A stretch of DNA of 64,000 bases from a virus (Duplodnaviria; Caudoviricetes), in IMG/VR virus record IMGVR_UViG_3300013947_000024, positions 1 to 64,000 of that record; one strand, given 5' to 3'. The position numbers and the translations under genes were made by a program. The number at the start of each line of letters is the position of its first letter. Within the stretch, counting starts at the first letter, position 1. The notes beneath the pieces were generated by a model that made no database searches, was not told the DNA's origin, and worked only from the letters and a program-made list of their open reading frames with translations. Positions 2,646-58,105 of this stretch are shown in pieces.

Positions 2646-3156
2646 GACAATTGAAGAGGATTCGGCGAGATTTTCTGCTATGGCTGGTGAATATGCGAAG
2701 AAGATTACAAAGCATATTGACACGGCTATGCAGGAAGCATATAAGGCGCTTAATGATAGCACAAACACTACAATCAGTGTCGAGTATCTTGAAAGGCTCG
2801 TGCTTAATCTTTCGTCGCTTCTGTACTTTGTTTCTGACAAAGTCGAGGAGATCAATATCAGAGACGATGTGGCAACCGCAACCGCGAAGGACGCGTATGA
2901 AAAGGCGTACCTTAACGCGTGCGCAGAGAAGGATGATAAAGGCAAGAGCATTCGCACGGTAGCAGAAAATCAGTCTCTTGCAAGTCAGTCTTCAAAGGAA
3001 GAAGAGATTCTTGCTACAATCTACGACCGAGCAAGCAAGATTGTAAGAAGCAAGGTGGAGGCTGGTAATGAGATGGTGGCAACTATCAGAAAAATCATCA
3101 CGCTCCGTATCAAGCAGATGGAGCAGGAAGACGCAGTGGACAGGAGTGATAGCTGA
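2611..3156 (+). CDS. Helical/coiled-coil protein, possible UvsY-like recombination mediator
   Basis: SD GGAGG before ATG 2611; all-helical; directly upstream of recA. Function inferred from position only. Confidence 0.35.
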   Translation: METTERFQEVNKTIEEDSARFSAMAGEYAKKITKHIDTAMQEAYKALNDSTNTTISVEYLERLVLNLSSLLYFVSDKVEEINIRDDVATATAKDAYEKAYLNACAEKDDKGKSIRTVAENQSLASQSSKEEEILATIYDRASKIVRSKVEAGNEMVATIRKIITLRIKQMEQEDAVDRSDS

Positions 3157-4328
3157 TGGCAATTTCTGAAATTATGAAAAAGCTGGAAAAGAAGAACGGT
3201 GTGGCTGTTATTACGAGTGGGGTTAAGGCGGTGGCGTCTGCTGGTACGCTTTCGCTCGGATCGCCATCTCTTGACTATTGCCTGTTCAACTCTTTCCCTG
3301 AGGGTAAGATTATCGAATTTTCTGGTAGAGAGTCAAGTGGCAAAACAACCATGGCTTTCTTTGTAGCAAATAGCTATATCCGCAGAGAGCTTGAAAGAAA
3401 CCCTGATCACCCGAGAGGAATTCTCTTTGTAGATGTCGAGTGCGCGGCAGACCCCGAGTGGGCACTTAAATCTACTGGCTACGATATGAACAGAACCGAT
3501 GTTGTCACATATTGTTATCGTCCTACTGGTGGAACATCGGCAGAGGAGATTCTTCAGACAATTATTGACGCCGTTCATGATAACGAAATAGGTCTTGTGA
3601 TTCTGGACTCTATCTCCTATCTTGTATCTGGTCAGATTGCTGGTGAGGATATGGATAAGAAGGATATGGGCGGTGTTTCTAAGACGCTGAAAGACTTCTG
3701 CTGTAAGATCACGGGAGATCTTAATCGCTATGGTATCACTCTCATCGGTCTTAACGGTTGTAGAGATAACCTTTCTCCGTATGGCGAGAAGGAAATCACT
3801 CCTGGAGGTAATGGATGGAAACAGGCTTGTATGGTGAGACTTCGTTTTAAGCGTGGCGCTTTCTTTGACGAGAATGGCGACGAAGTGCCTAAGACTTGTG
3901 GTAATCCCGCTGGACATATCATTGAAATGGCAGTCCTAAAGACAAAGGTATGCGAATGGTCGAGAAAGCAGGGTATGGCGCACCTTAACTACGCAAGAGG
4001 CATGGATATTGTCGCTGATACCATTGATGTCGCGACATGCGTTGGTCTTATCGACAACAGCACGCAGGGAACATTCAAGCTCATCGACACGGAAAGTGGC
4101 GAGCCTATTCTCGGAGAAGATGGAGAGCCTGTCAAGATTCGTGGCAAGAAGAATGTTCGTATCTATCTTGAAGAGCATAAAGATGTGTGGAAGAAACTGT
4201 ATGACAAAGTCTATGAGAAGATTTCCATTAAATCCGACCCCTTCATCAAGTCCTTCGAGGAAATGCTTGGTACGAGTGTGTATGAGAAGTTCGGTCTAAA
4301 CGAAGACTCTGACATTGCTAACGTATGA
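3156..4328 (+). CDS. recA: RecA/UvsX-family recombinase
   Basis: GSPSLD, Walker A GRESSGKTT, FVDVECAAD, Walker B LVILDSI, TPGG. Confidence 0.92.
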   Translation: MAISEIMKKLEKKNGVAVITSGVKAVASAGTLSLGSPSLDYCLFNSFPEGKIIEFSGRESSGKTTMAFFVANSYIRRELERNPDHPRGILFVDVECAADPEWALKSTGYDMNRTDVVTYCYRPTGGTSAEEILQTIIDAVHDNEIGLVILDSISYLVSGQIAGEDMDKKDMGGVSKTLKDFCCKITGDLNRYGITLIGLNGCRDNLSPYGEKEITPGGNGWKQACMVRLRFKRGAFFDENGDEVPKTCGNPAGHIIEMAVLKTKVCEWSRKQGMAHLNYARGMDIVADTIDVATCVGLIDNSTQGTFKLIDTESGEPILGEDGEPVKIRGKKNVRIYLEEHKDVWKKLYDKVYEKISIKSDPFIKSFEEMLGTSVYEKFGLNEDSDIANV

Positions 4329-4678
4329 CAAAGAATAAAGATAGCACAAGATATTTCAGTACGAGACAAGAAGAGAGCGTTTGTAAGGTTGTCAACGGGC
4401 ATAGAACCGCAAACTCTGGTGCTGGCTTGTGGAATAAGTCCGATGTGTACAACAAAGAAGCGTCGCTATGTGTAGAGTGTAAAACTCCTATGAGCGAGAA
4501 GAATTCGTTCTCTATCAAGAAAGAGTGGATTGAAAAGAACAGGAAAGAAGCTAAAGACGGAAGGTTTGAAAATCCTGTTCTTGCATTTAACTTTGAACCA
4601 GACGGAGAAAACTTCTTTGTAATAGACGAAAAGCTCATGAGATTCCTTGTCGAAAAGCTGGAAGAATACAATCAATAG
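4325..4678 (+). CDS. PD-(D/E)XK nuclease, Holliday-junction-resolvase-like
   Basis: QE...NSGA...KSDV...VECK motif. Confidence 0.65.
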   Translation: MTKNKDSTRYFSTRQEESVCKVVNGHRTANSGAGLWNKSDVYNKEASLCVECKTPMSEKNSFSIKKEWIEKNRKEAKDGRFENPVLAFNFEPDGENFFVIDEKLMRFLVEKLEEYNQ

Positions 4679-4683
4679 AGCGG

Positions 4684-4720
4684 TCGGCTACTGGAGAAAA
4701 TCTGGTAGCCGATTTTTTTT
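4684..4720 (+). terminator. Rho-independent terminator
   Basis: TCGGCTAC...GTAGCCGA stem followed by T8. Confidence 0.8.
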
Positions 4721-4726
4721 GTCACG

Positions 4727-4761
4727 AAGTAGTTGACTTTTGCAATTCTTTGTGATAGAAT
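4727..4761 (+). promoter_or_regulatory. SigA-type promoter, AAGTAG-TTGAC family (P1)
   Basis: TTGACT 4733-4738, 17 bp spacer, TG-n-TAGAAT 4756-4761. Confidence 0.8.
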
Positions 4762-4785
4762 AAAGGCACAACAAATGAAAGAGGT

Positions 4786-5085
4786 GTGAATATGTATCTG
4801 ATTATAAGAGAAGATAATAGAATAGAAGTCATTAAAGATTCTATTTCCGATGAAGATGTTTACACGGTGATTAAGGGCGACCCGTGCAATAACTCTGTGT
4901 GCGCGTTGGCAGATGATTATTCTGACATTGTAGTTGTGTCTGACACGTGGCTTCGCGGTGATAAGCATGAGGTGCTTGGGACTGATTACTACGGAGATGT
5001 CATAATCGCAAGATACGGCATCTTGGACGGAGAATATCATTCGTTGCGAGACGACGATGTGCACTGGCTGTTGCCGAAACTTTAA
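4786..5085 (+). CDS. Hypothetical protein
   Basis: First ORF after P1; GAGG SD. Confidence 0.55.
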   Translation: MNMYLIIREDNRIEVIKDSISDEDVYTVIKGDPCNNSVCALADDYSDIVVVSDTWLRGDKHEVLGTDYYGDVIIARYGILDGEYHSLRDDDVHWLLPKL

Positions 5086-15169: not shown

Positions 15170-15862
15170 ATGGTAAAAGAAATTATTACAGATTTTGATT
15201 TAATGCGAGACAGAGCCGATGAGGTAGACCTTCGTAAAGAAGGAGCCAAAGTAAGAGAGATTATCCTTAACCTTAAGGATACTATTAGGGAGAAGAATCT
15301 TGTTTATCTTACTGCGCCTCAGATTGGCTATAATGTAAGAGTTTTCTGCATTAACTATAGCGGAGATATTCACACCTTTGTTAATCCCATTGTAGCGACC
15401 GCAAAAACACTTCAGATGTCGATTGAAACATGCAAGAGTATTCCCGATAAGCGGTTTATGATTCCGCGCGCCAACGATGTTCTTGCGATGTATGAGACAC
15501 CTCTGTGTAAGGTTGAAACGAGAAAGTTGACTGGTCTTTCTGCTTTTATTTATCAGCACTGCATTGAACATCTTGACGGAATCGCTATTTCTGACATCGG
15601 GCTTGAAGTTGATGAATTGTATGATAATGCAAGCGATGAAGAGAAGGGCGAGCTTATCAAGAGATATATCGACGCTCTTGGAATTAAGCAGAAGAACATT
15701 GAAGAAGAAATCAATAAAGATAAAAATCTTAAGGAGGCAAGCGACGCTATGAAGTTTGCCGAAGAGGTTGCTAAAGGAAATGTGACCTTGGAGGGAATTG
15801 AAAAGCGGAGCGATAATACCGATAATGGCAACAAAAATCAAACTGAAGAGGAAGACAAGTAA
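15170..15862 (+). CDS. def: Peptide deformylase-like protein with degenerate active site
   Basis: LTAPQIG, ETCKSIP and QHCIEHLDG correspond to PDF motifs GxGLAAxQ, EGCLS and QHExDHL; extra C-terminal coiled coil. Confidence 0.8.
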   Translation: MVKEIITDFDLMRDRADEVDLRKEGAKVREIILNLKDTIREKNLVYLTAPQIGYNVRVFCINYSGDIHTFVNPIVATAKTLQMSIETCKSIPDKRFMIPRANDVLAMYETPLCKVETRKLTGLSAFIYQHCIEHLDGIAISDIGLEVDELYDNASDEEKGELIKRYIDALGIKQKNIEEEINKDKNLKEASDAMKFAEEVAKGNVTLEGIEKRSDNTDNGNKNQTEEEDK

Positions 15863-16982
15863 TACCGCCATCTCTGATTTAACGCTGGATCAAGGCGAAC
15901 CTCTTTTTGATACAAGCACCAACACTCTGTATGTTGGTCACGAAGACGGGAAGACAGATAAAGGAGTGAGAGTAGACACTTCTCGCGCTTTAGATATTGA
16001 ATACATCAACGATCATGGAGACGACTTGGCTACAATAAATTTCAGTAACGTTAATGTCCCGCAGAAGTCGTGGAATGGCTATGTGTATGTCGGGCACCGC
16101 TGGAGTGGCGGTGCAATATCCCCAAAGATTCAGAGGTATTTGTTCCGTACCGCAGATTCCAATTCAGCAGACATTGGATGTCAAGATATTTATTGTGAAA
16201 CTGTACACGGATCAGCAGACTACCCAACTGGGTTCACATCAAGGGAAACGCCAAGTGGTAATGATCCATGGTGGAACCGAGGCAAGGACAACCCTCTCGC
16301 AAACGGTACACTCATTACTGACTGGCAATACAAGACAGACGCAACTGAGAATAATCCAGCTGACATCGCCCTTGTCCAGACCGCCTCTGGTGAGGATGGC
16401 GCAATGAATATCGTCCTCGACGGAGATGTGTTTGTACGTGGTGGGGGTGAGTCTTGGCATAGAGTTGCTACGGAAGACGGAAATATTGCAACCGCGACGA
16501 AACTCCGGAATGCTCGCAATCTTCAAGTATCACTGGGTGACACATCGGCAACATCATTTGACGGGAGTGCTAACGTTACAAACATTGGTGTGTCTGGCAC
16601 TCTTCAGGTTGGCAATGGAGGGACGGGGAAAACGACTCTCGCCGAGGTGAATGGCGTTGGCTCTGCGCAACATTTAGAGATCGTTGCGGCAAACGAAATA
16701 AGGTTTGTGCGCCCAAGCACTTGGCAAAAGAATGGGGATTTGCTTCTTGGGCACACATGGTCAGACGGCGATAGAAAAGATCTGACTATCAATACGTATA
16801 TTTTTAACAACGGTGATGGCGCTGGTGGGCTTGCTAATATTCAGTTTGATAACGCCACTGGCGATCTTAATGGAACCGCCACCAACGCTACTAATATCAA
16901 TATTAGTGGAGCTGGGAGTGTGGATGGGAACTATAAACTTACACTATCTGGCACAACATTAACACTTGAAAAGCAGTCATAA
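15825..16982 (+). CDS. Tail-fibre-like/structural protein
   Basis: N-terminal IKLKR...L..GEP..D...LYVG (Mtd_N/hyaluronidase-N-like); ATATKL..AR...SFDGS.NV and GTL.V.NGGTG fibre repeats. Confidence 0.7.
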   Translation: MATKIKLKRKTSNTAISDLTLDQGEPLFDTSTNTLYVGHEDGKTDKGVRVDTSRALDIEYINDHGDDLATINFSNVNVPQKSWNGYVYVGHRWSGGAISPKIQRYLFRTADSNSADIGCQDIYCETVHGSADYPTGFTSRETPSGNDPWWNRGKDNPLANGTLITDWQYKTDATENNPADIALVQTASGEDGAMNIVLDGDVFVRGGGESWHRVATEDGNIATATKLRNARNLQVSLGDTSATSFDGSANVTNIGVSGTLQVGNGGTGKTTLAEVNGVGSAQHLEIVAANEIRFVRPSTWQKNGDLLLGHTWSDGDRKDLTINTYIFNNGDGAGGLANIQFDNATGDLNGTATNATNINISGAGSVDGNYKLTLSGTTLTLEKQS

Positions 16983-42912: not shown

Positions 42913-43407
42913 ATGAAATTTGCCTGTGGACCGAAAGAGCGAATTTTAAATGCCATTTCTTCTGGTAAAATAGCAAAAGAGTCGTTGATTCTTACAAGTG
43001 ATGACACGATTGTAGAAATCTTATTTTACGACAAAGACGGGCAACTAAAACAAGCAGATAGAAAATCAAAATTTACCTCCCTTGATGAGGCTCGTACATG
43101 GGCTACTGCATGGGGAGAAGAGGGAGATCTTATCACAGTCAAAGGAAGTGCTGGTTGGCTCCCTTACTATGTTGATACAGATAAGACAGTAAAACAACTT
43201 CCTTCTTCTGGTGGAGGAAGTTCTGGATCATCTGAGGGAATTCAATTCTTTAACTCTGATTTAGATTTTCCTACTAACGGAAGCCATAATATGTTGTATG
43301 TCGATTATGAAAATCGGTATCTGTATTTATGGGATTCTACGGAGGCGAAATACGCTCCGATGAATTATAATTTCCAAAACATTATTATAAATGGAGGACA
43401 AATTTAG
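42913..43407 (+). CDS. Structural protein
   Basis: FP..G....LYVD...Y.W motif; ends INGGQI. Confidence 0.5.
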   Translation: MKFACGPKERILNAISSGKIAKESLILTSDDTIVEILFYDKDGQLKQADRKSKFTSLDEARTWATAWGEEGDLITVKGSAGWLPYYVDTDKTVKQLPSSGGGSSGSSEGIQFFNSDLDFPTNGSHNMLYVDYENRYLYLWDSTEAKYAPMNYNFQNIIINGGQI

Positions 43408-43408
43408 T

Positions 43409-44677
43409 ATGGCACAAAACACTATTTTGACCACGATTCAGAACAAGCGTGGTCCTGCCGCTAACTGGCAGACAAAGAACCCCGTGCTTGCGGCTGGCGA
43501 GATTGGCGTTGAAACCGACACTCACAAATTTAAGTTTGGTGACGGCGCTACCGCATGGAACGATCTTGCTTATGCTGGTGCAGACGAGGCTCAGATCAAT
43601 GGTCTGATCGCGGCGGCAGAAGACAGATACTTCTCTGTTGTTCGTAATGCTGACGAAGCCGACAACGACGCTATTGCAAGAGCACTCGGAGAAGAGACTG
43701 CAAGCAAGGGCGATATTTGTGTTATCAAGACTGCGCTCGGAACCACTCCTGAATCCTATTCCTTTATGGGATATGTATTCGACGGAGAAAACTGGGGTGC
43801 TATGGATGGCAACATTAGTTCCGAGAACGTTATCCTGTCTAAGGACATCGTGTGCGCTGGCGCGTATACACAGGTCGGAAACATCACAAAGTCTCAGTCT
43901 GGTACTACCACAATCTCTGGAAAGGGCAAGACACTGAACAAGGTTCTTGAATCTATCTTTACGAAGGAACAGAACCCCTCTAAACCCACTCCTACTTGTG
44001 GTGTTACTCTTACTGGTGCTGGCGCAAAGGAAGTTGGTACGGTATTCACTCCTGCTTATACGACTTCTTTCGATAAGAAAGCATACGCTTATGCTCCTAC
44101 CGACACTGGTGTTACGGTAACTGCATGGGAAGTCAAAGACAGCAACGATGTTACGAAGACGACTGCTACTGGCACTTTTGATTCGTTCACTGTTACTGAA
44201 ACCACGAACTATAAGCTGACTGCTAAAGCTACTTATAGCGATGGTAATATTCCTAAGACAAACCTTGGTAATGATTATCCTGCTTCTCAGATTAAGGCTG
44301 GCACCACTGCTTCTGTCAACTCTTCTGCTGTCACTGGTTATCGTAACTGGTTCTATGGTTATAAGAACGCTTCCGGTGTTCTTGATGTTACCGCACTTGA
44401 TTCTGCTAAGATTCGTGCTCTTACCGCTCGCAACGGTTCTTTCCCCGCTACGATTGACACGAACGGAATGCAACAGATGTTCTTTGCTATTCCTGCTGGC
44501 AAGAAGAGCTCGGTTAAGTGTTCTAACAATGTCAACGGCGCTCCCTGCACGATGGTAAAGACTACTGTCAGTGTTGAAGGTGCTAATGGATTTACTGCAA
44601 TTGATTACGATGTTTGGTATGTCAACTCTGCTTCTGCGGACAGTGGCGCCAACACTTACAAGATCGTTGTGGCTTAA
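43409..44677 (+). CDS. Tail protein with Mtd_N/hyaluronidase-N-like domain
   Basis: W...NPVLAAGEIGVETDTHKFKFGDG.T.WNDL.Y. Confidence 0.75.
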   Translation: MAQNTILTTIQNKRGPAANWQTKNPVLAAGEIGVETDTHKFKFGDGATAWNDLAYAGADEAQINGLIAAAEDRYFSVVRNADEADNDAIARALGEETASKGDICVIKTALGTTPESYSFMGYVFDGENWGAMDGNISSENVILSKDIVCAGAYTQVGNITKSQSGTTTISGKGKTLNKVLESIFTKEQNPSKPTPTCGVTLTGAGAKEVGTVFTPAYTTSFDKKAYAYAPTDTGVTVTAWEVKDSNDVTKTTATGTFDSFTVTETTNYKLTAKATYSDGNIPKTNLGNDYPASQIKAGTTASVNSSAVTGYRNWFYGYKNASGVLDVTALDSAKIRALTARNGSFPATIDTNGMQQMFFAIPAGKKSSVKCSNNVNGAPCTMVKTTVSVEGANGFTAIDYDVWYVNSASADSGANTYKIVVA

Positions 44678-52103: not shown

Positions 52104-52254
52104 GAGGACATGAAAACTTACGACTTTAGTCGTGAGATGACTCGCTAACACGCGAGCACGCAGGGTCGGGACGACCCGTAGAGCCTGTGGAGACGCCCGC
52201 GTTAGCGGGGTCGATGAAGCAGGAATCTTGCCACTTTAGTGGCGAGAGGTTCAA
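52104..52254 (+). mobile_element. Non-autonomous IS200/IS605 mini-element (PATE-like) carrying a stand-alone omegaRNA
   Basis: Follows TTTAT (52099-52103). LE hairpin CTTACGAC-TTTA-GTCGTGAG 52117-52136; RE hairpin CTTGCCAC-TTTA-GTGGCGAG 52227-52246; ends TTCAA; no ORF. Interrupts a 13-bp inverted repeat. Confidence 0.85.
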
Positions 52255-52302: not shown

Positions 52303-52905
52303 ATGGAATATTTTGACGGCGTAGTAGCCGCTAAACTTTTTGGAGGCGGTGGTGGCGGTGGAGAACCCGTAGATGTTAGTGGCAAGCTCGACAAGGTAAC
52401 AACGACAGCTCTCGTCCCTCGTGTATACGGCGTAAAAGAAGATGGTAGCCAGCTGACTTATTTTGCCACTCCGAGCACAGACGCAAATACCATTGTCATG
52501 AGAGACGCCTCTAAGCATATCGCCGTCGAAGACGGTGTTGCTCCCAAACAGGCAGTAAACAAATCGCAGTTAGACAAGAAGCTCGACATTGAAGGCGGAG
52601 ATATTACTGGAGACCTTTCTGTGGCTGGTAATGTCGACATCACCGGGGTAGCAACACACACAGCGGAAGCGATTTTTAATAGTGGGCTTGAATCTGATGG
52701 TCCTGTTAATGTGAATAATTCCCTCGTAAAGATTACGAATGTTACGAAAGACATTGTTACACAGTATAACGCGGACATGATTACCCTTGAAGAGAACGGA
52801 GATGCCAAACAGTATAATTATACATTTCCTCGCTCTTCTGGCGCGCTTGCTGTTACAGCTCATTCAGAGATTATCAACGAAGACACAGCGGAACAAACGG
52901 TTGAT
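52303..52905 (+). CDS. Tail fibre gene, exon 1 (IStron-interrupted)
   Basis: KLDK/GGDITGDLSVAG fibre motifs; last codon GAT ends the TTGAT target site. Confidence 0.85.
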
Positions 52906-53360
52906 TAAGAGCACAACACAAACTTTTGACTTTAGTCATGAGTTAAAGTGTGCAAATAGTTAGCACATAGGGAAACTTGTGTGTAGTGGCGCTTACGGCG
53001 TCCAATATTACTTGAAATGCTGGAAACTCCTAAAGCTATTTGAACCACAACATAATTCATTAAATGGAATAAGTGTGACGGTAACGAAAGTAGAAAGAAT
53101 CAAATAGATGGTGCAGGGTTAAATCCTAAACACTCTTACAAAAAAATGGAGAATCAGCAGGGAAGCTCGAAAGAGAACCCCCAACGACTATTCCTCTTGA
53201 GGGAAGTAGGAGCAAGCGCTCCGAAGTGGGTAAGCCCAAACAGGCAAGCTGTGGGATAAGATATAGTCTGTGCTCATGTGAAAGCATGAGATACCTACCG
53301 CTAAACAATACGGCGGATAAGGATGTGTGAGAGTAGCGACCTCATGCGAACGACAACCTC
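52906..53360 (+). ncRNA. Group I intron ribozyme core (IA-like, with P7.1/P7.2)
   Basis: P AAATGCTGGAAACT 53015-53028; Q AATCAGCAGG 53152-53161; R CCAACGACTA 53181-53190; S AAGATATAGTCT 53258-53269. P7 GACTA/TAGTC; P7.1 TTCCTC/GAGGGAA; P7.2 GGAGC/GCTCC; P9 CTCATG/CATGAG. Confidence 0.92.
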
Positions 53361-53478
53361 TAAGCGACCGATAACCACGGTTATTGTGTCTTCTACAAAA
53401 TTAACAATTGAATATTGGTAACATCACTCTGAAAGCAAGTGTAAAAAAACTTATATAGAAGTAAGAGGAGGTGTTACA

Positions 53479-54585
53479 ATGGAAAAAGCATACAAGTTAA
53501 GAATCTATCCAAACAAACAACAACGGATTCTTTTAGCTAAAACATTTGGATGCGCCAGATTTGTGTATAATCACTATCTCAACAAGAAGATTGATTTATA
53601 CAAAGAGTCTGGCGAATCAATAAGTAATAACGAATGTTCGAGAGATTTAACACTCTTAAAACAGGAGTTAGAATGGCTACAAGAACCTGACAAGTGCGCT
53701 CTTCAAAACGCTCTAAAAGATTTGGATGCTTCGTATAAAAACTTCTTCAAGAATCCATCTCATTTTGGATTCCCAAGGTTTAAGTCGAGGCATGACAATC
53801 ATAGAGCGTATAGAACGAGCTTCTCCAACGGCAACATTGCAATCGCTGGAAATCATATCAAACTTCCTAAACTCGGACAAGTAAAAATCAGAGATAAGTA
53901 TCTTGTTCAAGGAAGAATTTTGAATGTGACAGTATCGCAAGCGCCGAGCGGGAAATATTTCGCCTCTGTTTGTTGTACGGATATTCCGCAAATAGATCTG
54001 CCGAAGACTGGCTCTGCTATCGGAATTGATGTTGGATTAAAGGAATTCTTAATTACAAGCAACGGCGACAAGGTTGCTAATCCAAGATATTTGAGCAAAT
54101 CCTTAGAAAAACTTGCAAGACTTCAAAGAGAGCTTTCGCGAAAACCAAACGGAAGCAATCGGAGAAATAAGGCAAGAATCAAGGTGGCGCGTCAATATGA
54201 AAAGATTAGCAATCAACGAAAAGACTTCTTAAATAAACTCACAACGAACCTTATTAAAGAGAATGACATCATCTGCGTTGAGGATTTACGGGTTGAGAAT
54301 ATGGTTAAGAACCATAAGCTCGCAAGGTCTATTTCAGATGCGTCGTGGGGTGAGTTTAGACGGCAACTTGAATATAAGGCAAGATGGTACGGAAAGAGAA
54401 TTTCTGCGATAGATTCTTTCTTCCCATCAAGTCAGACTTGTAGTTGCTGTGGATTTAAGAATGTAGGGACAAAAGACTTGTCCGTAAGAGAATGGGTGTG
54501 TCCACAATGCAATACGAAGCACGATAGAGACATCAATGCGGCTATCAACATTCTCAACGAAGGATTAAGACTTGTTACTGCATAA
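53479..54585 (+). CDS. tnpB: TnpB RNA-guided endonuclease (IS200/IS605 OrfB)
   Basis: KAYK.RIYP...FGC.RFVYN; RuvC GIDVG / VEDL / [10 protein letters not shown] intact; CSCC...CPQC Zn finger. Confidence 0.96.
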
Positions 54586-54589
54586 ATTG

Positions 54590-54719
54590 TTAATAATGTA
54601 GAATATACAATAACCGCTGGAACGGCGGGGATAGCTCGGTAAATATCCCGACAGTAGTCGGGAGTTCCCGAGAACCCTGCGACTTTAGTCGCAGGAGGTT
54701 CAGTCTTGGAAGATTAAAG
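54590..54719 (+). ncRNA. TnpB omegaRNA (right-end RNA); guide = first ~16 nt of exon 2
   Basis: Hairpins CCGCT-GGA-ACGGCGG, CTCGG/CCGAG, CCCGAC/GTCGGG, RE hairpin, then TCTTGGAAGATTAAAG. 5' boundary approximate. Confidence 0.8.
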
Positions 54720-56017
54720 ACTCGACTTCTTCTGTCTCTATCTATTACGCAGACAACGGGGTACACACTGGCGCCTTGGTACAGAATGGGCACGCAAGCC
54801 TGACATACTCCGATGCGACTAACACCTCCTCTATTATCGTCGGAGATGGTATTGTTTCTCTTTCTTATCAGCCAACAACTGCTGGCGAACAAGCTACCGC
54901 TCTTGTAATCTCCGAAGAGGGCGCGAAGATTAACGGGCAGAAAATCGTCGTTGCTAATGAGATTACAGGCATTCCTTCTCATATCAACATTATTGCTCCC
55001 GAAGGCGCTACAAGTGGCACTCTTGAAACTGTTCAACTCGAAATTCTTCAAGCCAACCTTAGCAACTTTATCGTATTCGCGCATAAGGAATATCACCTTA
55101 ATGCAGACGGTCTCGTAGAAGGGTATCTCACCTATACCTATGGCGGTTATGAAAACAATAAACACATCACGGAATCTATTACTGTTACGGTAAACACAAG
55201 AGCGTGGGTACTTAATAGAGGGCAACTGGTCACTACTACCGATTATGCTAACGGTAGCGTGTCTGGCGTTGTGAATGTTGACGAAGATTTCAGCAAGGGT
55301 CTTCAGGTGTCAAGCACTGGTAATCTTGGCATTTACAGAGCACTTGATACTGATATTTCGTCTCGTACGACCCTTCGTCCTATCACCCCTCTTAATCTTA
55401 ATACGGCTGTTCTTGCGGCTCTTACAGACGCAAACAAGGTAGCGCCTAACGACACGCAGAAAACTGCTTTTAAGACTGCATGGGGTATTACAAGCGCTAA
55501 CGGCACGCGAGTAATCTTTGCCGCTGACGAACCCGCTACTGGAGATTATTCAGAGGGCGATGTGCTTATCAACACCTCAGATGAGTGCTTCTATTGCTTG
55601 CAGAATGGCGCATGGACAAAGCAGGATTCGTTCGGCAAGCCTTCTTGGCATACAACCGCTCCCGCAGATACCTCAAAGGTTCTTCGTACAGAGATCACAT
55701 GGACGAAGGCTATCCAATACAAGAGTGGGTCTCAAGACACGGTTGAATGCCACTTCTTAAGCTCTGGTGATGGCTATGCGAGGTTCGATACCAACGCAAG
55801 CGGAGAGAAACTCTTGCAGGGTTGTACAAACTGGACAGTCAGCGGTTCTTCTAATGGCACGGACGAAGACGGAACAGCCGTAATTATCAACGGAGTTATG
55901 TTCCACGATGTAGATACCGATATTGCGAAGTTTATTGTATACAGATTTTCTGATAGCTCGTCTCTGTTCGGTATGCACTTTGTGCCTACAGACGCTACAT
56001 TCAGATACTTGTACTAA
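54704..56017 (+). CDS. Tail fibre gene, exon 2 (spliced product 638 aa)
   Basis: Open frame SWKIKDSTSS... continuous with the ORF called at 54776; C-terminus paralogous to ORF 40490. Confidence 0.85.
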   Translation, partial: SWKIKDSTSSVSIYYADNGVHTGALVQNGHASLTYSDATNTSSIIVGDGIVSLSYQPTTAGEQATALVISEEGAKINGQKIVVANEITGIPSHINIIAPEGATSGTLETVQLEILQANLSNFIVFAHKEYHLNADGLVEGYLTYTYGGYENNKHITESITVTVNTRAWVLNRGQLVTTTDYANGSVSGVVNVDEDFSKGLQVSSTGNLGIYRALDTDISSRTTLRPITPLNLNTAVLAALTDANKVAPNDTQKTAFKTAWGITSANGTRVIFAADEPATGDYSEGDVLINTSDECFYCLQNGAWTKQDSFGKPSWHTTAPADTSKVLRTEITWTKAIQYKSGSQDTVECHFLSSGDGYARFDTNASGEKLLQGCTNWTVSGSSNGTDEDGTAVIINGVMFHDVDTDIAKFIVYRFSDSSSLFGMHFVPTDATFRYLY

Positions 56018-56122: not shown

Positions 56123-58105
56123 ATGCGCATCAGATTAACAGAAACATACCGTTTACACAAGGATATCGGCGAGAAAGACAATCATGGAAACCAACTGACC
56201 AAAGAACAGAAGATCTTTTTCAAGAATAGCAAGGTTCGCGATCAAGATGGCAGACTTCTTGTATGTTATCACAATACAAACGCGGACTTTCAAACATTTG
56301 ATACGCAGAAACAGGGAAGTCGTTTTACTGGTAATCTTGGCAACGGATTTTATTTCACGCCATATAAAGATCAGGCGGATTATTATGGTGGGAAATATAC
56401 GATGGAGGTATATCTTCTCGCCACCAATCTGTTTGACACCAACAGCCAAGAAGATATGGAAAATTTGCTTAGAAAAAATCAAATTGTGTATGATAAAAAA
56501 GCGGTACGCGATGCTATGCAAAAGGGCATGGCAACAAGAAATATTTTGCAGTCTGTCGCAGACTATCGCACGCACACGGGCAACATCAACGACGATTTTA
56601 TCGAGCTAATCATGCGTGCTGGATATGACGGTGTTGTAAATGGCGTAATAGGCACTAATGAAGAATATATGGTTTTTGAACCAAATCAGATTAAATCCAT
56701 ATCAAACACAAACCCCACTCATTCTGACAATATAAACGAATATTTTGGATCGTTGAAAGAATCCTATCTTAACGAAGACATTGACGGAATGAGAAAGTTC
56801 TATCCCAATATCGAAGACGATGCCTTTATGACGTTCATAGAGCTTGACCCTACATATACGAATGGTTCTACAAACGCAGGAAAATACGCCCGTTGGATTC
56901 TTGGGCTCGCCAACAAGGGAATGGGAAAGATTGAAAATATTTCGCACCTTTCTGACGCTCTTCGTAGATTTGACGAAGTTCGTAACGACCTCATCAACAA
57001 AGACGTTATGAGATACAAGAGCGTACAGGAGCTTGAGGACGCACTTAACGCGCCCGAATCATACGCGGAGAAATCTCATAGACAAGAGGTTCGTGGTAGA
57101 CAACAGGCTCGTAAAGAAGCCGATATTACCAAAGACGCTGATATTGTATATCAGGATGCTACATGGACTGTGTATGTACCAAAAACCTATGCGGCTTCTT
57201 GCAAGCTCGGTCAGGGGTCTAAATGGTGTACAGCAAGTACAGAAAGCGATTATTATTACAATTACTACCTTTCTGCATACCCCGACTCCAAATACTACAT
57301 CGTTATCAATAACTCTAACCCAGATGAGAAATATCAACTCCATTTTGAAAGCGGTCAGTTCATGGATAAAGATGATGAGCGCATTCACGGAGGAATTGAC
57401 GCATTTAAGGAATATAAGGGGCTGTATGAATTCTTGAAGGGATTGCAGGCATCTCTGTTCTTGAATCAAATCGGAGTCTCAGCAGAGGAAAAAGAATACG
57501 AAGTGAAGATTACTCACGCGGATTTAGCAGAAGCGCTTAGCGACAACTATAGTCGCGACGCGCTCGGAGCAGATGCCATTCGCAACATACTGGATGGGAA
57601 TGCGTGGGACTTGTTTGATGGGTTTAGCAATTTACCCAGAGACGAAATACAGTCCGTATACGACTACGAGATTAGCTCTGAAAATCTGCAAAAAATCGAA
57701 GAGCTTGGAGCAACAGAAGAGTCTATCTTTGACGATAGGGATGATGTGTATTATGCCATTGGTGGCGCCCTTGCTGATGCTTTGCTTGACAACGCGGTAT
57801 CCAACATCGAACGATCGGTGGAAAGTGGGATAGAGGAGGCAATGCCAGCATGGGCACATATCGACGATATTGGGTTTGGATACAAGAAGTCCACATTCAC
57901 AGTCGACACACAAACCTTCAAGGATGCTGTTTCAGACATCATGAACAACTATGACACTGATGCAATGGGGTCTTTAGAGGAAGTACTTCAAAATGTCATT
58001 GACAACAATAGCAACGGAATTTACTACGAAGATGACTATGACTACGACAAAGACACATTTAACGCATTGCTCGCTGACAACCTTTCGGAATTAAAACCAC
58101 AGTAA
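56123..58105 (+). CDS. Polyvalent protein: ART-PolyVal-like ADP-ribosyltransferase + WCT-motif (PcfJ-like) domain + acidic tail
   Basis: SKVRD.DG.LL..YHNT, GFYFT, GYDGV, EYMVFEPNQIKS; linker LKESYLNED; VYVPKT..ASC..G.GSKWCTA. Confidence 0.7.
   Translation: MRIRLTETYRLHKDIGEKDNHGNQLTKEQKIFFKNSKVRDQDGRLLVCYHNTNADFQTFDTQKQGSRFTGNLGNGFYFTPYKDQADYYGGKYTMEVYLLATNLFDTNSQEDMENLLRKNQIVYDKKAVRDAMQKGMATRNILQSVADYRTHTGNINDDFIELIMRAGYDGVVNGVIGTNEEYMVFEPNQIKSISNTNPTHSDNINEYFGSLKESYLNEDIDGMRKFYPNIEDDAFMTFIELDPTYTNGSTNAGKYARWILGLANKGMGKIENISHLSDALRRFDEVRNDLINKDVMRYKSVQELEDALNAPESYAEKSHRQEVRGRQQARKEADITKDADIVYQDATWTVYVPKTYAASCKLGQGSKWCTASTESDYYYNYYLSAYPDSKYYIVINNSNPDEKYQLHFESGQFMDKDDERIHGGIDAFKEYKGLYEFLKGLQASLFLNQIGVSAEEKEYEVKITHADLAEALSDNYSRDALGADAIRNILDGNAWDLFDGFSNLPRDEIQSVYDYEISSENLQKIEELGATEESIFDDRDDVYYAIGGALADALLDNAVSNIERSVESGIEEAMPAWAHIDDIGFGYKKSTFTVDTQTFKDAVSDIMNNYDTDAMGSLEEVLQNVIDNNSNGIYYEDDYDYDKDTFNALLADNLSELKPQ

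Follow-up and report, generated by a model that had tools for sequence, protein, structure and literature searches.

The 64-kb stretch of DNA analysed here (hereafter the window) is the start of the 129,560-bp IMG/VR virus record IMGVR_UViG_3300013947_000024, whose completeness is put at 83% by CheckV, and it carries at 52906-54703 on the + strand an insertion of 1,798 bp which, by every sequence criterion tested, is a group A (CdISt1/IS605-type) IStron, lying in sense orientation within a tail-fibre-like gene. The insertion has a group I ribozyme at its 5' end, followed by an intact tnpB gene and by a right end resembling the scaffold of a TnpB guide RNA (omegaRNA), and its removal joins the two halves of the interrupted gene into a single frame of 638 codons. 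The explanation that we favour, and which we regard as highly probable, is that of a non-autonomous group A IStron, the anatomy of the element and a model of splicing, omegaRNA formation and homing-type cleavage being taken jointly.

Boundaries of the element and the interrupted gene

Exon 1 of the interrupted gene (52303-52905, +), as given by the list of open reading frames (ORFs), comprises 201 codons with a GAGGAG ribosome-binding site before the ATG and shares 99.5% identity with residues 1-201 of P0003, a protein without interruption; it ends in GTT GAT, directly after which the insert opens with TAAGAG, the TAA being in frame. The last five bases of this exon, TTGAT (52901-52905, +), would serve at once as the IS605 target, the left cleavage site, the 5' splice site (U being the last exon base) and the expected transposon-adjacent motif (TAM). 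At the other side the element ends GGAGGTTCAG at 54703, the terminal bases being TTCAG, with TCAG in 54700-54703, and the last intron base, G54703, is the expected omega-G. Both features are those of the family, since an IStron of group A is preceded by TTGAT, ATTAT or TTTAT and has TCAG as its 3' end (PMC4227781). Exon 2 (54704-56017, +), recognised from its translation and homologues, contains 437 codons and the stop, the last ~115 residues constituting a variable tip, and when 52905 is joined to 54704 the frame remains open over 201 + 437 = 638 codons. The boundaries of the IStron are therefore those indicated by ORF restoration, by colinearity with homologues and by the end motifs of the family.

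A search with exon 2 returned five uninterrupted homologues (P0003-P0007; 632-662 aa, one of them exactly 638 aa), with all of which the joined protein aligns gap-free over the junction EQTVD/SWKIKD, D201 and W203 being invariant. P0003 (638 aa) shares ~99% identity with the joined protein over residues 1-520 and ~50% over the last ~115, and P0010 differs from P0003 at 2 residues, so that very close relatives possess the gene without the intron. An initial annotation of the window had placed the end of exon 1, the TTGAT target and the TAAGAG start of the insert at these same positions in the sequence, had predicted the uninterrupted 638-aa frame and had proposed a search for empty alleles in related phages; the colinear homologues bear out the frame, and the five uninterrupted proteins supply such alleles at the protein level. 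No relative was found in IMG/VR scans with P0003 and with the homologue alignment, nor in a JGI metagenome scan with the homologue alignment or with a degenerate junction pattern, and exon 2 had no counterpart among the GenBank phages by tblastn.

With regard to the function of the restored protein, exon 1 and the homologues match PHROG 8780 ('minor tail protein') weakly, with E values of 1e-6 to 1.6e-8 (exon 1: 1.6e-8), while exon 2 has no Pfam or PHROG match. By position the gene belongs to the tail module, with fibre genes of the Mtd_N type (e.g., 43391-44677) upstream of it, and the conserved residues 1-520 followed by ~115 variable ones make up the conserved-shaft/variable-tip pattern of receptor-binding proteins. 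An AlphaFold model built on a 5-sequence alignment had a mean pLDDT (predicted local distance difference test) of 37.8, too poor to be used, and a wide fold search with VIA-align of this low-confidence model gave generic beta-barrels only, for residues 527-637 (Z <=5.8). Taken together, the N-terminal PHROG match, the tail-module position and the variable C-terminal tip make a tail fibre a plausible identity; the tail-fibre and receptor-binding role claimed initially is thereby retained, with moderate support.

Two further ORFs of the window, at 15798-16982 and 43391-44677, contain an Mtd_N (major tropism determinant N-terminal) domain, the N-terminus of the latter also matching many tail-fibre PHROGs, and the phage therefore has several fibre-like genes.

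The group I ribozyme and its P1 helix

The Rfam family Intron_gpI (RF00028) matches 52916-53290 (+) with 56.3 bits (E 6e-13) over the full model (1-253), with the P, Q, R and S strings aligned, which delimits a core from P3 to P9 and agrees with the full core of P, Q, R and S elements described in the initial annotation. This score, obtained by scanning the local region, exceeds the gathering cut-off of 50 bits, and a scan of the entire window at gathering thresholds missed the ribozyme and returned zero matches. Group A IStrons have an IA2-type group I ribozyme at the 5' end of the element, and the RF00028 match places a ribozyme there at the group I level, with tnpB downstream on the same strand.

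The internal guide sequence TAGTTAG (52957-52963, +) forms the 3' strand of P1 and pairs with the exon bases UUGAU and with the first two intron bases, UA (+1/+2), giving a U-G pair at the splice site as in group A elements. Over four related phage IStrons this pairing covaries with the target, GTTAG or GTCAG occurring with TTGAT and GTAAG with TTTAT; the relative L011 shows a compensatory change and L007 a Watson-Crick variant. No internal sigma-70-type promoter was found for tnpB or for the omegaRNA, promoter-like sites being fewer than in shuffled sequences.

TnpB, the guide-RNA scaffold and the transposon ends

The tnpB gene (53479-54585, +) is intact, has an AGGAGG ribosome-binding site and encodes 368 aa with three Pfam domains (HTH_OrfB_IS605, OrfB_IS605 and the Cas12f1-like TNB), and the ISDra2 TnpB structures 8BF8 and 8H1J match its residues 2-363 at E 1.9e-112, in line with the intact tnpB noted initially. 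The motifs GIDVG (182), VEDL (267) and HDRD (348) are aligned with their counterparts in the best structural match, and with two CxxC pairs also kept, the RuvC triad and the zinc-finger cysteines are preserved.

The ~90 nt directly upstream of the element end (54614-54703, +) constitute the right end and a putative omegaRNA-type scaffold, recognised by RNAalifold, the guide rule and the family terminus, with stem-loops at 54614-54628, at 54634-about 54672 and, as the right-end hairpin, at 54676-54695. RNAalifold applied to six elements gave 26 pairs, half of them (13/26) with compensatory changes; Rfam holds no family with which this scaffold could be compared. Three consecutive stem-loops before the guide are also what has been described for published IStron omegaRNAs (PMC10690162). 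The first 16 nt of exon 2 (54704-54719, +) are, from their position and the published TnpB/IStron model (PMC10690162, PMC13565253), the predicted guide segment, and TTGAT together with these 16 nt would be the TnpB target at an empty site, TTGAT being the TAM reported for related C. difficile IStrons (PMC10690162).

The left end consists of the guide CAAA (52919-52922) and a hairpin at 52923-52942 with an 8-bp stem, a T-T mismatch and a TTTA loop (together 52919-52942, +), and the right end of the guide GAAC (54672-54675) and a hairpin (54676-54695, +) with a perfect 8-bp stem and a TTTA loop. Here the guide is defined as the four bases 5' of the hairpin foot and the cleavage site as the last four bases before the cut. 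In IS608 the guide (G) recognises the cleavage site (C) by the pairs G1:C2, G2:C1 and G4:C4, and all three are Watson-Crick at both the left (CAAA/TGAT) and the right (GAAC/TCAG) end of the IStron. The hairpins, the TTCAG terminus at 54703 and obedience to the IS608 rule had all been part of the initial annotation, and the positions proved right, with pairing and covariation in accord. The rule fits all five IS605-type right ends of the genome (GAAC-TCAG once, GAAT-TCAA and GAAG-TCAC twice each), and left-end guides change from CA.. to AA.. when the target changes from TGAT to TTAT, as in L011 (guide AACA, target TTAT). Across seven left ends and about ten right ends guide and target covary, some relatives having a wobble or mismatch at the fourth position. 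Since the rule is obeyed at both ends, these look like competent TnpA substrates.

TnpA and the other IS605-type elements of the genome

No tnpA was found within the IStron or elsewhere in the 64-kb window, so that the element has no Y1 (HUH) TnpA of its own and is therefore non-autonomous, a condition that is usual among group A IStrons (PMC10690162, PMC13565253). The initial annotation had likewise seen no tnpA in the window, and had concluded that mobility needs a transposase from the host or another source acting in trans. The first statement holds for the window but not for the genome, in which a full-length TnpA is encoded at 104469-104873, ~50 kb downstream (Pfam Y1_Tnp, 118 bits, profile positions 2-121 of 121), just upstream of another tnpB and inside a different IS605 element. 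Help in trans is still needed, but the transposase need not be host-derived, since the phage genome encodes one.

In total the genome contains four tnpB genes, three of which fall outside the clade of the IStron TnpB in a phylogenetic tree. These belong to three further IS605-type elements, all on the + strand: a TnpB-only element (~100420-101808; 380 aa) with a left-end hairpin identical to that of the IStron, a complete one (104469-106124) with tnpA (134 aa) and tnpB (364 aa), and one adjoining tRNA genes (~116223-117645) with a truncated tnpA (~116.2 kb) and a tnpB of 363 aa. A group I match is absent from all three.

A protein-free IS605-type mini-element of 151 bp (52104-52254) was also observed, in the intergenic region just upstream of exon 1, with a left-end hairpin at 52117-52136, a right-end hairpin at 52227-52246 and the terminus GGTTCAA. 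Its guides fit the rule (AAAA with TTAT, GAAT with TCAA), the right end of the TnpB element at 100.4-101.8 kb of the genome recurs almost unchanged in its right part, and 52184-52225 give a sub-threshold match to Rfam RAGATH-18 (27.5 bits; cut-off 44.9). The mini-element has the appearance of an omegaRNA module standing alone, which might be served in trans.

Related IStrons on phage contigs

An IMG/VR search with the TnpB returned phage contigs with 63-77% identity, all from the metagenome dataset 3300045988. Three of these (L008, L010 and L011), together with L007, show the same layout of ribozyme, tnpB and right end, inserted after TTGAT, GTGAT or TTTAT and ending GGTTCAG, and in 4/4 excision restores an ORF. 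L007 is the unannotated record of Clostridioides phage ES-S-0173-01 (CP067352.1), where a sister IStron of 1,902 bp (2989-4890) follows TTGAT in the gene of the large terminase subunit (TerL), its removal restoring a frame of ~597 aa; its ribozyme is unreported by Rfam, though its sequence visibly contains the P, Q, R and S strings. The other three, whose ribozymes score 58.7-67.5 bits with Rfam, interrupt a tail-fibre gene with strong PHROG matches (L010; 1875-3708, target GTGAT), an integrase gene (L008; 1875-3717, TTGAT) and a small ORF (L011; 2006-3705, TTTAT). L009 has a TnpB of the same clade and the same right end, without a ribozyme. In the TnpB tree the five IStron TnpBs, L009 and a copy from Eubacterium ruminantium form one clade with support of 100/99, and no group I match was found at the nearest bacterial TnpB loci, L021 and L022, the sequence of L021 beginning 113 nt upstream of tnpB.

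These relatives bear on the possibility that a bacterial IStron was mis-joined into a phage contig during assembly, which the metagenomic origin of the record would permit and which we nevertheless find barely credible. Both flanks continue one phage ORF in frame, sister elements are present on related phage contigs and in a phage record of cultured-host source, and TnpB identity reaches 71-77% among phage contigs as opposed to <=62% to the bacterial reference genomes found (~61-62% for the nearest). The interrupted allele moreover recurs in assemblies from other sources, as P0002 on an 84.5-kb contig and as P0009, an exon-1 variant that stops after EQTVD, and this recurrence of the halves in independent assemblies makes an artefact less likely.

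Two TnpBs 94-95% identical to that of the IStron (P0014 and P0015) come from contigs of 122,368 and 124,535 bp, and the uninterrupted fibre proteins P0010 and P0004 likewise lie on contigs of 122,368 and 124,535 bp, which suggests that sister phages with an unbroken fibre gene may hold a ~95%-identical element elsewhere. P0003 is encoded on a Logan/ENA contig of 61,352 bp.

Rfam HEARO, the IscB-type omegaRNA, was also matched on two of the contigs found in the TnpB search, at 2839-3054 of L014 (108 bits, within ~1.1 kb downstream of the TnpB match) and, sub-threshold, at 4047-4284 of L013 (41.9 bits, within ~0.5 kb downstream), and those phages therefore carry IscB-type elements too.

Proposed mechanism and alternative explanations

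The functional model, put forward in the initial annotation too, is the published IStron model (PMC10690162, PMC13521648, PMC13565253) as it may apply to this copy, and nothing found contradicts it. Late pre-mRNA of the fibre gene would self-splice at 52905/54704, allowing the 638-aa protein to be made; alternatively, TnpB would capture the 3' part of the transcript as an omegaRNA, with the start of exon 2 as its 16-nt guide. As the 3' splice site separates scaffold from guide, the two fates would be mutually exclusive, and an antagonism between splicing and omegaRNA formation has been shown experimentally for IS607-type IStrons (PMC13521648). The armed TnpB would then cut TTGAT-flanked intron-less copies, whether products of TnpA excision or alleles of co-infecting sister phages, and recombinational repair of the cut site would copy the IStron back, while moves to new TTGAT-type sites would need TnpA in trans, the candidate being the TnpA of the other IS605 element of the genome.

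It might instead be supposed that the insertion is a dead end, the ribozyme being inactive in vivo and the fibre gene either inactivated or expressed as two polypeptides (201 aa, and 413 aa from TTG 54776), as could be read from the halves being called as separate ORFs (P0002, 413 aa; P0012, 201 aa) and from the unusual stability of the terminal hairpin. However, the core elements of the ribozyme, the U-G of P1 and the terminal G are all intact, the exons join exactly in frame, in a protein colinear with its homologues, and no recognisable ribosome-binding site precedes TTG 54776. In addition, several independent assemblies retain the interrupted allele, and four relatives are likewise in frame, in essential genes such as TerL, all of which leads us to consider a dead end very unlikely.

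Several points nonetheless count against the IStron model that we favour. Splicing, omegaRNA formation and TnpB cleavage in this copy are predictions from its sequence, and the empty site, with its TTGAT and 16-nt target, is documented at the protein level. A consistent P10, in which the first bases of exon 2 would pair with those 5' of the internal guide, was found neither in this copy nor in its relatives, which is unsurprising for an element inserting into unrelated exons. The genomic TnpA belongs to an element with a TnpB of another clade and with different hairpin stems and may not be cognate, and the support for the tail-fibre label consists of weak profile matches (E 1.6e-8) and of context. 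Finally, the right-end hairpin, at -13.3 kcal/mol, surpasses in stability those of the five relatives with which it was compared (-5.2 to -11.3 kcal/mol), whose stems contain wobbles; in an IS607-type IStron a stabler terminal stem favoured guide formation over splicing (PMC13521648), and the perfect stem could bias this copy in the same direction.

If the IStron is accepted as spliced and retained, TnpB may still do nothing more than cut the donor site again once TnpA has excised the element, all within one genome, with no role in competition between phages. Such re-cutting is the sole TnpB role to have been shown experimentally for IS605/IS607 elements (PMC10690162, PMC13565253), and excision could occur here, given the full-length genomic TnpA. 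On the other hand, this IStron and its four phage relatives lack tnpA and yet have tnpB and the scaffold intact, a pattern that has been read as a hint of intron homing (PMC13565253), and the empty and occupied alleles in ~99%-identical phages constitute a substrate for homing. We treat confinement to the donor site as a possibility of some substance, albeit an improbable one.

The more far-reaching proposal, which we put forward tentatively and think rather unlikely in its entirety, is that of a phage-adapted lineage of IS605-type IStrons using TnpB as an RNA-guided homing nuclease in mixed infections, with co-conversion of the fibre tip and a resident OMEGA 'ecosystem'. The IStron would lie in the conserved shaft, ~1 kb upstream of the hypervariable receptor-binding tip, so that the cutting of intron-less alleles and co-conversion could drag a host-range determinant into competitor phages, splicing keeping the carrier phage viable throughout; the other TnpB elements, the TnpA and the guide-RNA mini-element would then make up the 'ecosystem' resident on the virus.

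The phage genome

All long ORFs of the window are carried by the + strand. Among the PHROG matches are an SbcC-like nuclease, exonucleases, an HNH endonuclease, an anaerobic ribonucleotide reductase, a terminase and a portal, the latter being <=33% identical to those of phages of Streptococcus, Listeria and Bacillus, and the source is therefore an uncultured large phage, the host of which is probably a member of the Bacillota. The nearest bacterial relatives of the TnpB are found in Eubacterium ruminantium and in a Clostridiales metagenome-assembled genome (~61-62% identity). A second intron was sought around the genes of the HNH endonuclease and of NrdD (14-24 kb) and was not found, NrdD being complete in one ORF. 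Directly after the fibre gene, an ORF of 660 aa (56123-58105) has an N-terminal ART-PolyVal ADP-ribosyltransferase domain (E 1.4e-21), a type of domain occurring in polyvalent proteins of phages and conjugative elements.

Significance

IStrons are the sole system in which one transcript chooses between the repair of a host mRNA and the arming of an RNA-guided nuclease. Phage IStrons have been in print since 2014, when group B elements were described in the C. botulinum phages c-st and D-1873 (PMC4227781), and homing of tnpA-less IStrons, including between co-infecting phages, is listed as awaiting validation in a 2026 review (PMC13565253). With phage IStrons and the homing hypothesis already published, the concept is unchanged by this copy, and the view of the initial annotation that IStrons are known mainly from Bacillota chromosomes overstated the novelty, a relative being present in a GenBank Clostridioides phage as well.

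What the copy does offer is natural material for studying RNA-guided intron homing between viruses, and its particular value for that purpose lies in combining a clean polymorphism of empty and occupied alleles in ~99%-identical phages, intact ends that obey the guide rule, a TnpA encoded by the same genome and several sister insertions. It also has a practical side, in that genes carrying an IStron are divided into two ORFs by annotation pipelines and the ribozyme can escape Rfam scans at default settings.

Comparison with known systems

The element shares most with CdISt1 and the CdiIStrons. In these elements of C. difficile and its relatives (Braun 2000; Tourasse 2014, PMC4227781; Zedaveinyte 2023 preprint, PMC10690162), as in the present one, a 5' group I ribozyme is combined with a 3' IS200/IS605 module, tnpB and hairpin ends, insertion is after TTGAT with TCAG at the 3' end, the U-G of P1 is flanked by base pairs, tnpA is often missing while tnpB is intact, and the 3' splice site coincides with the boundary between omegaRNA scaffold and guide. 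In contrast with these bacterial chromosomal elements, this copy lies in a phage structural gene, belongs to a TnpB clade so far found mostly on phage contigs and is known from its sequence only.

The group B IStrons CbISt3 and CbISt4 (of the C. botulinum phages c-st and D-1873) and the CboIStron are similar in the overlap of splicing, transposition and guide RNA and, in the case of CbISt3/4, in being carried by phages. They differ in being IS607-type elements with a serine TnpA, which insert after GG, end in CGG and have a 5' exon ending in G, and in having long AU-rich inverted-repeat stems without the IS200/IS605 system of hairpins and guides. ISDra2 has a closely related TnpB, the same TTGAT target and TAM, subterminal hairpins and a guide-RNA scaffold derived from its right end; unlike the IStron, it has its own tnpA and no ribozyme, and the gene it interrupts is not restored at the RNA level.

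Finally, the phage group I introns with homing endonucleases (T4 td/I-TevI, Twort and SPO1 types), self-splicing and IA2-type, likewise place an intron and a nuclease gene in an essential or structural phage gene, and the expected mode of spread, the cutting of an intron-less allele in mixed infection, is common to both. The IStron differs from T4 td/I-TevI-type introns in that its predicted nuclease would be RNA-guided, taking its specificity from the flanking exon through the omegaRNA, and in that transposon ends are present, so that it can also move to new sites.

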